A stretch of DNA of 9,294 nt from a virus (Duplodnaviria; Heunggongvirae; Uroviricota; Caudoviricetes): the IMG/VR virus record IMGVR_UViG_2531839179_000014. One strand, written 5' to 3'. Below the pieces are notes generated by a model. The model was not told the origin of the DNA, made no database searches, and worked only from the letters and a program-made list of their open reading frames with translations. Made by a program: the position numbers and the translations under genes. Below, piece after piece: positions 3,588 through 8,911 of the stretch (position 1 is its first letter; every line of letters starts with the position of its first letter).

Positions 3588-4889
3588 CTGAGGGATCCCC
3601 ACAAAATTACTGCTAATAAACCAACACCATATTTCGGTAGGTTCTGGACAGATGGTTTAGAACTGTGCTCAGTACTGTTCGTCTTAAAATAAGTGGCGAG
3701 TGTCGAAGAACATTCTTCGCTAACGTCAGATATGAGATAACCCGCCGGGATTTAATGCTGTTAGCCTGATATTTCAGGTGTAACCCTTTATTTTCAGCGT
3801 GATAACCGAGTAACCACATTACGATAGTGCTCAACGTTGCCAGCAGACTCAGAACCAGAATTCTTCCTGTTGAACGACTTTTGCTGGCCCGAAGACCAAA
3901 TCCGAAGCGCCCGTTCTTTTCATCACGAAAGTTTTGCTCTATCTGCATTCGCCGACTGTATAACTTGATGATTTCTCGCGCTCTGAAGTCATTTGTACTG
4001 CTGAAGATCAACCAGGCTTCTTTTGCTGATTTGCTCTGTTCTTTGTCTGTTTTGTTTAAACCACTCTGACCTTTCGAACGTTTCTTTTTTCGCCCTTTTG
4101 CCGATTTCTTATAGGTGTAAAAATGCCCCCGGATGCTTTTTTTCCTTTCTTTAACCAGCCTTCCAGCCCCCATATATTCCGGTGTTTTACATTCAGGGCT
4201 ATCCGACACTTTTTAACCATCTTTCAGGCGCGTTATCGAGGCAATACTGAACGTTATTTCTGATCCGACCAATAAAATCCCAGCCCAGAGAAGTAATATG
4301 GTGAAACCATGCGCTCTGAAATCCAGCATCCGTGACAATAATAACCCTGGCATCGGGGGGCAGGGATTGAGCAAGGGAATCAAGGAAATCATGTTGTATC
4401 AATGGATTATTTTGTTTTTCAGAAGGAACAACCTTACTCAATAACGGAATGGAACGCCCGTCACACAGAAGGCTGGCACGAAGAACATGATGCTCCTGGG
4501 AGGGATAGCCACTCCAGTCTACGGCTATTACACATAAAGATAACTGCCGTGTCAGCATTGAAGTGATATTCCTGAAAATCATTGGAATATCGCGATGGAG
4601 CGCCTCATTACCCATGAGGCGATCAATACGTTTGCTCTTATTCTTAACTTGTGCATTACCCGGCAAAAAACGTCCGATACTGGTCAGCGTCAGAGATGCT
4701 CCGTTGATTAACACCACTGTGGCATCCATCAGGGCATTTTGTCGGTACTGATGAAATGGTGCTAAGGCATCCCGGAAGAAATTCTGACATACTTTATGAA
4801 CAGGCATAGCAGTGATCTCATTGAATTGTTGGCACAAATCAGTAGATCACATAATGCTATGTCTGTCTCGTTTTCTGGGAATTCCTCAG
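3588..4889 (-). mobile_element. IS10-like insertion sequence (IS4 family), ~1.3 kb, apparently complete
   Basis: Left end CTGAGGGATCCCCACAAAATTACTG (3588-3612) resembles the IS10 inside end as recalled; right end read on minus from 4889 is CTGAGGAATTCCCAGAAAACGAGAC. The two ends match at 17 of 22 positions. GATC sites sit in the left terminus (3594-3597) and near the transposase start (4814-4817, 4845-4848). Confidence 0.85.
3613..4837 (-). pseudogene. IS10-like transposase, split by a frameshift near the A5/T5 run at 4210-4214
   Basis: N-part (ORF 4199-4837) has KRIDRLMGNEALH, IAVDWSGY, VLRASLLCDGRSIP, VIIVTDAGFQSAWF, LGW. C-part (ORF 3613-4209) has the IS4-family YREK signature YSRRMQIEQNFRDEK. 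Both are collinear with IS10 transposase as recalled. The start may be TTG at 4837 or ATG at 4807. Confidence 0.8.
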
Positions 4890-6575: not shown

Positions 6576-7359
6576 TTACCCCCTGAAGCCTGGCGGGATC
6601 GCACTGTCCGGCAACGAGACGGTGTTAACCTGTCGGAGCAACGTCTCAGGCCGAACACCTTTCGGCGCGAACAGGCCCTGGTATTCATTGGCGATGCTGT
6701 GTCGAATCACCTGCTCAGGTGTAAAACCCTGCTGACGGAATTTTTCCAGTTCCCGTATCGCCCCGTTAGCGCCCTGCTCCGTTCGAATCGGTTTTCGCAA
6801 TGCCTGTCTGAACCGGACCCACTCATGCCAGAGTGTTTCCGGCAACCAATCGGGCAGCTCAATAGCCTCCGGCTCGAATTTTTTAGACGCTCGTTTTTGG
6901 CGAGGGGGATTTAGGGGGAGATCTGTATTTAGATCTTCCTCTTCCTCTGGTAACGCTTTTTGATCCGTTTGTGTAACGCTGGCAGCGTTACCTTTTCGTT
7001 TCAGTTCGCGTATTTTTGTTACTCGCTCGTTTGTAACCGCCCGTTTTTTTAGAGCTTTTTCCGTTATGACGTTCAAAGTTAGGTAGAGAAAGCCCACCGT
7101 CATTTTCGACCAGCCATCCAACCTGAATTAACGCATCAGCAAAACCAGACATAAAAGTGATGCGATCTATTGCACTTTTTGTAACGCCGCGAGCGTTACA
7201 ATCTGCATTACCGTCTATCATTTGTTGATCCGCCCATGCCCAGAAGCGAATAACCTTCCCTAATGCGGCATCTGGATCAATATTCAGAATCTCAGCAAGC
7301 CTGAATATTTCCGGCTTATCCGGCGTAATAACCTCGAGCTTTATCCAGTTTGAAGCCAT
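6576..7359 (-). CDS. Replication initiator/replisome organizer (lambda O-like, YdaU-like), interrupted by a frameshift at the T7/A7 run at 7044-7050
   Basis: N-part ORF 6988-7359 (MASNWIKLEVITPDKPEIFRLAEIL...LPNFERHNGKSSKK) and C-part ORF 6576-7121 (...RAVTNERVTKIRELKRKG...LPDWLPETLWHEWVRFRQALRKP...) overlap at 6988-7121 in different frames. Removing one A from the A7 run fuses them into ~260 aa. Position is between the YdaT-like and DnaC-like genes. Confidence 0.6.
6972..6992. repeat. 21-bp palindrome, copy 3 (GTAACGCT-ggc-AGCGTTAC), inside the O-like coding region
   Basis: Perfect 8-bp arms. It is one of three related palindromes in this region. Confidence 0.7.
7180..7200. repeat. 21-bp palindrome, copy 2 (TGTAACGC-cgcga-GCGTTACA), inside the O-like coding region
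   Basis: Perfect 8-bp arms; differs at one base from copy 1. Confidence 0.7.
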
Positions 7360-7446: not shown

Positions 7447-7858
7447 ACGACAGAATCGCCGGGCGACCCACCACCGCTGAAATGTGCTTTCCGGTAAACG
7501 GCCTGGACAGCATCATCATGCGCATCAATTGCCGTACTCAACGCTTCCTGCGCCGCCAGTAATGCACGGCGTTCCAGGGTATCGAAGATACAGAGTCGGT
7601 GACGCAGCTCACGCGGAAGAATTGCCAGAACCGCAGGGATCAGTTTCTGAATTTTTCCCTTTGCGCTTTCGTTTCACCTTTCAACCAACGGTGATAGATA
7701 TTCTGCTGATTGTTCCAGTCCTTGCCTGGTACCAGAGACAATTCGCCGCCCCCCTGCCGCAGATATTCTTCAGTAATTGCGTTAGCGACCCACGCCTGCC
7801 CTTTTTCGGCTGCCAGGGCTAACAGCACTGATTCGATGTGCTCATGCCTGATTTTCAT
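7447..7858 (-). CDS. YdaT-like protein (CII-like regulator or putative toxin family), interrupted by a frameshift at the T5/A5 run at 7652-7656
   Basis: ORF 7640-7858 (MKIRHEHIESVLLALAAEKGQAWVANAITEEYLRQGGGELSLVPGKDWNNQQNIYHRWLKGETKAQREK) continues in another frame as IQKLIPAVLAILPRELRHRLCIFDTLERRALLAAQEALSTAIDAHDDAVQAVYRKAHFSGGGSPGDSVVVH*, ending at 7447. One extra A would restore ~140 aa. Start overlaps the dicC-like stop. Confidence 0.6.
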
Positions 7859-8069
7859 GAATCACCTTCCCAGGTCGTTTTGCCTTACGATATTCGTCAT
7901 AAACTTTGGGGTCGTACTGAAGTTCCCCGCCAGATGCCTCTTGCAGGCGCATCGCGCGACCTTCAGGAACCAGTTCCCCCCATGCAGCAATGCTTGCCAG
8001 CCTAACTCCTGCGGCATTGGCAAGCTTTGTTTTGCTGCCAAAAAACGCTATAGCATCAATTTTCAACAT
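7842..8069 (-). CDS. dicC: Cro-type small DNA-binding protein, DicC/YdaS-like
   Basis: 75-aa ORF divergent from the DicA-like repressor, with strong SD AAGGAG 6 nt upstream. Its size and divergent position match DicC; assigning it to the YdaS/DicC-type Cro-like family is from recollection. Confidence 0.75.
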   Translation of the reverse strand: MLKIDAIAFFGSKTKLANAAGVRLASIAAWGELVPEGRAMRLQEASGGELQYDPKVYDEYRKAKRPGKVIHENQA

Positions 8070-8145
8070 ATCGAGCTCCTTAGATTTTCCTAAGAAAACC
8101 AGATCGTAGAGAAACCTAAGTCAAGAAAAATTAGAATTCCCTAAT
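8070..8145. promoter_or_regulatory. Divergent promoter/operator region between the dicC-like and dicA-like genes
   Basis: Two copies of a 15-bp motif: TTAGATTTTCCTAAG (8080-8094) and GTAGAGAAACCTAAG (8106-8120). A -10-like TAGAAT (8132-8137) lies 8 bp before the dicA-like ATG, which has no SD. Confidence 0.6.
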
Positions 8146-8553
8146 ATGAAAAACGAAACCTTCGGTGCTCGCCTCTTACATAGGCGTAAAAAATTAAAAC
8201 TGTCTCAGGCCGCATTAGGTAAGCTGGTCAAAGTGGCTCACGTAACAATTTCTCAATGGGAAAGAGATGAAACACAGCCGGCGGGGAAAAGATTATTCGC
8301 ACTGAGCCAAGCGCTTCAGTGCTCACCGACTTGGCTTCTTTTTGGGGATGAAGATAAACAACCAGGCGAACCGATCCCGGATAATCAGCCAGCCATTCTG
8401 ACAGAAGATCAAAAAGAGTTACTTCAACTGTTCGACGCACTGCCTGAGTCAGAGCAAAAGGCCCTGTTGTCAGAGATGCGTGCTCGAGTTGAAAATTTCA
8501 ACAAACTTTTTGAAGAACTACTCAAAGCTCGCAAAAGAAGCGCAAACAAATAA
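8146..8553 (+). CDS. dicA: DicA-like XRE-family HTH repressor (no C-terminal peptidase domain)
   Basis: 135 aa. N-terminal HTH LSQAALGKLVKVAHVTISQWERDETQP. Blocks LFALSQALQCSPTWLLFGDEDKQP, ALPESEQ and MRARVENFNKLFEELLKARKR match E. coli DicA as recalled. Confidence 0.8.
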   Translation: MKNETFGARLLHRRKKLKLSQAALGKLVKVAHVTISQWERDETQPAGKRLFALSQALQCSPTWLLFGDEDKQPGEPIPDNQPAILTEDQKELLQLFDALPESEQKALLSEMRARVENFNKLFEELLKARKRSANK

Positions 8554-8619
8554 TCCCCTTTTTTCTCCACACCCTGTAATAAAAAGCACAAACTTTCAAA
8601 CACTTGTGTTTTTTACATC

Positions 8620-8680
8620 AAAAAACTTAGGTTTTTCTACATAAAAATCTTGACCACCCACCTTAGGTTATTCTAAATTT
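8620..8680 (+). promoter_or_regulatory. Promoter/operator region for the ydfA-like operon downstream of dicA
   Basis: Two more copies of the 15-bp motif in inverted orientation: CTTAGGTTTTTCTAC (8626-8640) and CTTAGGTTATTCTAA (8662-8676). They bracket a -35-like TTGACC (8650-8655) with A/T-rich -10 candidates at 8673-8680. Confidence 0.55.
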
Positions 8681-8755
8681 CATTCATCAAGACACCGCAC
8701 GGTGTTCTCAGCAAACAGTTCCGCTACCCCGGCGTTAAGGGGAAATGGGGTCAAC

Positions 8756-8911
8756 ATGAATACTATCGATCTTGGCAACAACGAATCTCTGGTGTACGGC
8801 GTGTTCCCCAACCAGGACGGCACATTCACCGCCATGACGTATACCAAAAGCAAAACGTTTAAAACCGAAGCTGGCGCACGTCGTTGGTTGGGAAGACATT
8901 CAGGTGAGTAA
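8756..8911 (+). CDS. ydfA: YdfA-like small protein (51 aa)
   Basis: Internal ATG of listed ORF 8702-8911, preceded by GGGG 5 nt upstream: MNTIDLGNNESLVYGVFPNQDGTFTAMTYTKSKTFKTEAGARRWLGRHSGE. Position after dicA is as in the E. coli Qin dicA-ydfABC-dicB operon; sequence identity is from recollection. Confidence 0.55.
   Translation: MNTIDLGNNESLVYGVFPNQDGTFTAMTYTKSKTFKTEAGARRWLGRHSGE

Follow-up and report, generated by a model that had tools for sequence, protein, structure and literature searches.

Predicted operators of a Qin-type DicA/DicC immunity switch on both sides of a prophage repressor gene, and their covariation with repressor class

Five copies of a short sequence situated on either side of a dicA-like repressor gene very probably represent 18-bp dyad operators (consensus CCTTAG-N6-CTAAGG) of a lambdoid immunity switch of the Qin (DicA/DicC) type. 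The copies were found in a 9294-base stretch of DNA, referred to here in its full length as the window, which is part of a decayed lambdoid prophage containing several IS elements. Three of the sites occupy the dicC-dicA spacer, and the other two surround the ydfA-operon promoter. The sites are non-random and conserved, they are located on promoters, and they covary with the class of DicA encoded beside them. Binding and repression by DicA have been demonstrated for the K-12 allele only, and for the allele in the window we infer both. The layout itself is not new, having been known in K-12 since 1988. Any novelty is modest and would lie in the operator set of a distinct and widespread DicA class, in a C/G exchange at operator position 2 that accompanies changes in helix 2 of the repressor, and in a complete middle operator. 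Coordinates of the features are presented in Table 1.

Table 1. Features of the immunity region and insertion-sequence remnants in the window (predicted or putative where no database match is given)
Feature	Position (strand)	Basis and remarks
Insertion-sequence remnants	513-875, 1309-2127, 3613-4837	HTH_23/29 transposase N-terminus; IS3/IS600-like integrase-core orfB; IS4-type DDE transposase
dicC-like gene (Cro analogue, 75 aa)	7842..8069 (-)	NCBIfam NF007282 DicC, 158 bits; Pfam P22_Cro
Exact motif copies	8080-8094 (+), 8106-8120 (+), 8626-8640 (-), 8662-8676 (-)	Pattern match
Predicted operator 1 (Oc / OR1-like) CCTTAGATTTTCCTAAGA	8078..8095	Best dyad; exact motif copy
Putative dicC promoter	8096..8124 (-)	-35 TTGACT (8124-8119), 17-bp spacer, -10 TGGTTT (8101-8096)
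Predicted operator 2 (Om / OR2-like) TCGTAGAGAAACCTAAGT	8104..8121	Exact motif copy, in dicC promoter spacer
Predicted operator 3 (Oa / OR3-like) AATTAGAATTCCCTAATA	8129..8146	One-mismatch copy, adjoins dicA ATG
dicA-like repressor gene (135 aa)	8146..8553 (+)	NCBIfam NF007257 DicA, 237 bits; Pfam HTH_3 only
Terminator-like hairpin after dicA	8580..8615 (+)	A-tract, GCACAA..TTGTGT stem, T-tract
Predicted operator 4 (distal) ACTTAGGTTTTTCTACAT	8625..8642	Exact minus-strand motif copy, just upstream of -35
ydfA-operon promoter (dicBp / PL analogue)	8650..8679 (+)	TTGACC (8650-8655), 18-bp spacer, TAAATT (8674-8679); promoter scan, 9/12 matches
Predicted operator 5 (proximal) CCTTAGGTTATTCTAAAT	8661..8678	Exact minus-strand motif copy; overlaps spacer and first -10 bases
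ydfA-like gene (DUF1391), first of downstream operon	8756..8911 (+)	Pfam PF07151, 97 bits

The initial annotation, made from the letters alone, had named the three genes dicC, dicA and ydfA, and these names were borne out by profile searches, with both NCBIfam scores above their cut-offs. Gene order is that of K-12, divergent dicC and dicA being followed by the ydfA operon, which in relatives carries dicF, dicB and related genes. When compared with their K-12 counterparts, DicA was 62% and DicC 75% identical, and ydfA had about 92% DNA identity. Residues 2-69 of DicA matched the N-terminal domain of the P22 C2 repressor (E 1e-21; 1adr, 2r1j) and homology stopped at residue 69. An S24 peptidase domain was absent from the 135-aa protein, in which Pfam recognized only an HTH_3-type domain, and window DicA does not have the S24 domain with Ala-Gly cleavage site that defines an SOS-cleavable repressor. 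The immunity region is a mosaic: its DicA is nearest to the class-A proteins of Pantoea and Enterobacter (74%; classes are defined below), and the DNA-binding part of its DicC is 93% identical to that of the E. albertii and E. ruysiae DicC proteins that partner class-B DicA.

The motif KTAGANNNNCCTAAG (KTAGA-N4-CCTAAG) had exactly four exact matches in the 9294-base window. In dinucleotide-preserving shuffles the mean was 0.01 matches, and none of 200 shuffles gave four. As the pattern had itself been derived from these sequences, a motif-independent repeat search was also carried out; it returned a direct family (D1) at 8078-8093, 8129-8144, 8625-8640 and 8661-8676, together with an inverted pair (I1) in which 8106-8121 and 8625-8640 were 94% complementary. 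When up to two mismatches were allowed, a fifth copy, TTAGAATTCCCTAAT, was detected at 8131-8145 on the plus strand, with one mismatch and with its end adjoining the dicA ATG at 8146. At that threshold the window contained no additional copies, and a third site at the ydfA promoter, which had been considered as a candidate, was rejected on this basis. Nor did 19 kb of sequence from the closest E. coli relative contain a further copy. The four copies originally proposed are real, as is the claimed bracketing of TTGACC by the two downstream of dicA; this hexamer pairs with TAAATT as a sigma-70-like promoter. Two other statements needed amendment. Both of the sites placed in the dicC-dicA spacer are present, but the spacer holds three, the additional one being at 8131-8145; and the partial dyad symmetry TTAG...CTAA noted within each copy does exist, but an 18-bp dyad of the P22 type is the more apt description of each site. 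Three copies (8080-8093, 8131-8144 and 8663-8676) have a perfect internal TTAG-N6-CTAA dyad, and in the remaining two copies (8106-8120 and 8626-8640) one half reads GTAG. Measured between centres, the three sites on the dicC side are 26 and 25 bp apart and the two on the ydfA side are 36 bp apart.

With respect to transcription signals, the ydfA-operon promoter was the sole strong sigma-70-like match nearby and occupies the position of TTGACC-17-TAATCT in K-12. A consensus promoter scan left the dicC and dicA promoters below threshold and did not call them. The dicC promoter was assigned by positional homology to TTGACT-17-TATCTT of K-12, and with this placement Om would lie in its spacer, and Oc would cover both the Shine-Dalgarno sequence AAGGAG and the predicted start site of dicC; the overlap of the dicC-dicA dyads with the divergent promoters is likewise one of positional homology. 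Oa includes a candidate dicA -10 element, TAGAAT (8132-8137), 9 nt upstream of the ATG. No Shine-Dalgarno sequence was found before the dicA ATG, which suggests a leaderless dicA mRNA, and a weak dicA promoter within Oa may give rise to a leaderless or nearly leaderless transcript. Downstream of dicA, the hairpin at 8580-8615 folded at -9.6 kcal/mol (z -4.2) and was also recovered as inverted repeat I7 in the repeat search; the terminator scan missed it because its stem is GC-poor. An Rfam scan of the whole window at gathering thresholds returned nothing in 8000-8800.

The ydfA leader (8685-8755) was conserved in all three DicA classes and in several genera. It contains, in order, CATCAA, the perfect palindrome ACACCGCACGGTGT (8693-8706), and then ACAGTTCCGC..CCCCGGCG..AAGGGG; in leaders from Pantoea, Citrobacter and Buttiauxella the CAC..GTG core of the palindrome was kept and its outer bases were altered. 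The leader had no Rfam match, its single-sequence fold was no better than that of shuffles (z -0.18), and RNAalifold of 11 diverse leaders gave only a 4-bp consensus helix further downstream, missing the palindrome (8693-8706). The leader could act either as an RNA element or as a binding site for a protein.

Comparison with the DicA sites published for K-12 Qin, which had been proposed as a check on the sites, showed the same positions and the same core with a different flanking base. In K-12 the dicC-dicA spacer carries Oc TTGTTAGTCATAACTAACAA and, directly before the dicA ATG, TTAGCATTAGCTAA, and the dicA-ydfA spacer carries TGTTAGCTATAGCATACA, then TTGACC, then TGTTAGTCATGGCTAATC. The TTAG-N6-CTAA core is thus found at homologous positions in both spacers of the two prophages. 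Oc lies at -63 from the dicA ATG in the window, a distance identical to that in K-12, and the homologous core of Oa lies at -12/-13 in all three DicA classes; in both prophages two sites 35-36 bp apart surround the TTGACC -35, and both encode a short, 135-aa repressor without a cleavage domain. Dyads in the spacer at 8078-8146, a second cluster at a dicBp-like promoter and operators matching the class of the repressor together mark the window switch as almost certainly one of the Qin type. The two alleles differ in helix 2 of DicA (SQAALGKLVK in the window, TQRSLAKALK in K-12), in operator position 2 (C in the window, G in K-12), in the site centres, and in the middle site, which is a full dyad in the window but not in K-12. 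The window sites depart from the K-12 ones by one base per side, and the K-12 half-site TTGTTAG, as in Oc, is not among the strong half-sites of the window, all of which read CCTTAG.

The K-12 locus has been described by Bejar et al. 1988, Yun et al. 2012 and Ragunathan & Vanderpool 2023. According to the citation of Bejar et al. 1988 in PMC10448788, through which that paper is represented here, the K-12 spacers were recognized then as operator clusters like lambda OR and OL. DicA of K-12 binds Oc in vivo, a single base change abolishes this binding, and the dicC start site has been mapped (PMC3441716). Deletion of dicA derepressed dicBp 22-fold (PMC10448788). DicC gave ChIP-seq peaks flanking dicA, with the motif TT(A/C/T)G...C(G/A/T)AA (PMC11430063). 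In curation of the Reg-Seq / RegulonDB type, the DicA site at dicB(p) is listed as low-evidence and of unknown location (PMC7567609), and neither DicA nor DicC is mentioned in the main text of a ChIP compendium (PMC12059191). A literal search for four of the operator sequences found no paper in the searchable literature, which is itself incomplete. As the half-sites in the window read CCTTAG and K-12 Oc is sensitive to a single base, the window allele likely has an immunity specificity distinct from that of K-12 DicA.

Relative to P22, the operator half-site of the window differs, CCTTAG replacing ATTTAAG, and the PL-like promoter has two sites, 36 bp apart, and not three. The resemblance to P22 lies in the N-terminal domain of DicA, which matches that of C2, in the P22_Cro fold of DicC, in the left and right operator clusters, which are mirror images of each other, and in the operators, 18-bp dyads whose outer block is contacted and whose A/T-rich centre is not (contacts from PMC4267663). 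A further difference is that window DicA lacks the S24 peptidase or RecA-cleavage domain (Pfam; PMC10448788). The arrangement is like that of lambda in its divergent repressor and cro genes with three operators between them at 25-26 bp spacing, and in a second operator cluster of mirror orientation at the leftward early promoter. Window dicA also has no Shine-Dalgarno sequence, and lambda cI is likewise without one when transcribed from PRM. It differs from lambda in that the operator sequence and the C-terminal domain of the repressor are unrelated, the two clusters are just ~580 bp apart, and the sites are displaced by ~10 bp with respect to the inferred dicA start.

To compare related loci, 253 were gathered from genomes and viral contigs, 247 of them with a recognizable dicA, and they were sorted into three classes by helix 2 of the DicA helix-turn-helix: class A (SQAALGKLV; the window, Pantoea, Enterobacter and others), class B (TQREAARLAG; the E. 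albertii type) and class C (TQRSLAKALK; K-12 Qin). Classes A and B have the same recognition helix, AHVTISQWE. Across the dicA-ydfA spacers of 55 distinct class-A loci, site columns were 0.96 identical to the window as compared with 0.73 elsewhere. Among the 188 windows of 15 nt in this spacer, the proximal site ranked second (conservation 0.97) and the distal site third (0.96), and the bases between the -35 and the proximal site (8656-8661) varied freely. Within the class-A dicC-dicA spacer Om ranked second of 62 15-mers, and class A is the only class in which Om forms a full dyad; as this spacer is conserved nearly throughout, operator constraint and promoter constraint are inseparable there and the footprint test is less discriminating.

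The base immediately outside the core (position 2 of the 18-mer) covaried with the helix-2 class of DicA over 150-odd distinct loci, which, as they derive from three repressor lineages, represent few independent events. It gives C-TTAG in the class of the window and G-TTAG in the K-12 and E. albertii classes. Counted in distinct loci, the left flank of Oc was C in 56/56 of class A and G in 49/49 of class B and 48/48 of class C, and the right flank was G in 55/56 of class A and C in 49/49 and 47/48 of classes B and C. The strong half of the proximal site had C in 50/55 class-A loci and G in all loci of class B (49/49) and class C (47/47), and that of the distal site C in 43/55, with G again in 49/49 and 47/47. 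The proximal sites of class A (cTTAGgttattCTAA) and class B (gTTAGgttattCTAA) have essentially one difference, the flanking base. In the complex of the homologous P22 repressor, base contacts begin at position 2 and are absent at positions 8-11 (PMC4267663). This covariation is the strongest evidence that the sites belong to the resident repressor, because a promoter element or host-factor site need not change with the repressor class. The initial annotation had made conservation in homologous dicA loci one touchstone of its reading, and the copies proved to be conserved and, in addition, to covary with the repressor. Its broader claim of a two-operator immunity layout, in which the repressor would control both dicC and the ydfA operon, is likewise supported by the K-12 layout, by conservation and by covariation.

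DicC was considered as the determinant of the class-specific base and rejected, since the DNA-binding part of window DicC is 93% identical to class-B DicC and 68% to the class-A DicC of Pantoea. That DicC does not track the flanking base fits a DicC which reads the shared core, in agreement with the published DicC motif. Class-A and class-B dicA loci (L039 and L136) were both present in one source genome, IMG 2671180710, which fits heteroimmunity of the two classes.

Given that DicA of K-12 bound Oc but not Om or Oa in the in-vivo assay (PMC3441716), some of the five copies may not be sites for DicA. DicA might use one strong site per region, namely Oc and the proximal site, with Om, Oa and the distal site serving as DicC/Cro sites or persisting as relics of an inverted duplication. 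Such a division is in keeping with the DicC ChIP peaks that flank dicA (PMC11430063), and at Om, Oa and the distal site either one half is degenerate or the centre contains G/C. The comparative data run the other way: Om is a full dyad in class A, unlike classes B and C, and ranks high in its spacer, the distal site is conserved as strongly as the proximal one, and the class-specific C, a base that DicC does not track, is found at the distal site in most class-A loci. We regard this partial use of the set as unlikely.

Far less probable still is a role for the repeats as promoter or architectural elements, or as binding sites of host factors, in place of one as operators of the prophage repressors. 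The sites are AT-rich and overlap promoters, and both H-NS/Cnu and YjdC influence the K-12 locus (PMC3441716, PMC11430063), but a host-factor site would have to account for a flanking base which follows the helix-2 class of DicA at three separate sites and does so within one host genus. A further point against it is that the -35 hexamer and the spacer bases adjoining the sites vary freely.

On the preferred reading, that of five operators in a Qin-type switch, a DicA dimer would bind the operators through its P22-C2-like helix-turn-helix domain. When bound at Oc, over the start site, and at Om, in the spacer, DicA would block the leftward dicC promoter. At the proximal site, where it would cover the spacer and -10, it would block the rightward ydfA-operon promoter, and the distal site, 36 bp upstream, may assist this repression. 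Oa overlaps the likely dicA promoter and the ATG, and could provide negative autoregulation or, alternatively, repression of dicA by DicC. DicC, as the Cro analogue, is predicted to bind the shared TTAG..CTAA core in both regions and to oppose DicA, which would result in a bistable switch. As DicA is without a RecA-cleavable domain, induction would be expected to proceed via an antirepressor or by flipping of the switch, as in K-12 (PMC10448788).

The copy of the region in the window was 99.6% identical to that of the closest E. coli relative, with 20 differing positions in 4.4 kb; at a single place, each E. coli genome in the collection covered at most 58% of the window. At the boundary of Oc and the -10, two of the substitutions (8095 G>A and 8100 T>C) fall inside a 6-bp stretch. 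The second changes the conserved TAGTTT to TGGTTT in the putative dicC -10 and removes the A at -11. Among 82 class-A loci with a readable hexamer, 64 had TAnnTT and six, the window and five others, had TGGTTT. The 8100 T>C change may be a down mutation in the promoter of the lytic side. Elsewhere in the dicC operon, a 1-bp insertion at 7044 splits a replication-protein-like gene into ORFs 6576-7121 and 6988-7359, and a 1-bp deletion at 7651 shortens the product of a YdaT-family gene from the 141 aa of the relative to 72 aa; both genes are pseudogenes. It is speculative, but the two substitutions together with these two frameshifts fit a decay of the lytic arm of the switch.

Two further observations concern the remainder of the window. 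The IS4-type DDE transposase is split into two ORFs. On the minus strand at 2127-2229, overlapping Rfam matches to c4-a1b1 (RF03163, 52.9 bits) and isrK (RF01394, 52.4 bits), both above gathering thresholds, were observed; this element looks like an antirepressor-control RNA of the P1/P7/Gifsy type.

A more detailed reading is offered tentatively, as one which we consider possible but somewhat more apt to fail than to hold. The C/G exchange at position 2 would define a third heteroimmune DicA class, and it would be the start of helix 2 (Ala22 in the class of the window, Arg22 in the K-12 and E. albertii classes), not the recognition helix, that reads the base, the residue named here for position 2 being a putative assignment. 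Class A would possess a full three-site right operator, and DicC would read only the shared core and hence be exchangeable between classes. The A-to-G change at dicC -11 (8100) may lock the decayed prophage in the DicA-on state.

The general principles of lambdoid regulation are unchanged by these findings. They supply operator coordinates for a DicA allele which is common in the prophages of E. coli and Shigella; a close copy was found in about 750 of 5426 complete E. coli genomes, and carriers include the PPompW prophages found beside Stx2a phages. They also give comparative support to the poorly documented K-12 DicA sites at dicBp. Finally, they point to a simple natural change that may alter specificity, in which C or G at operator position 2 is paired with particular residues in helix 2 of DicA.
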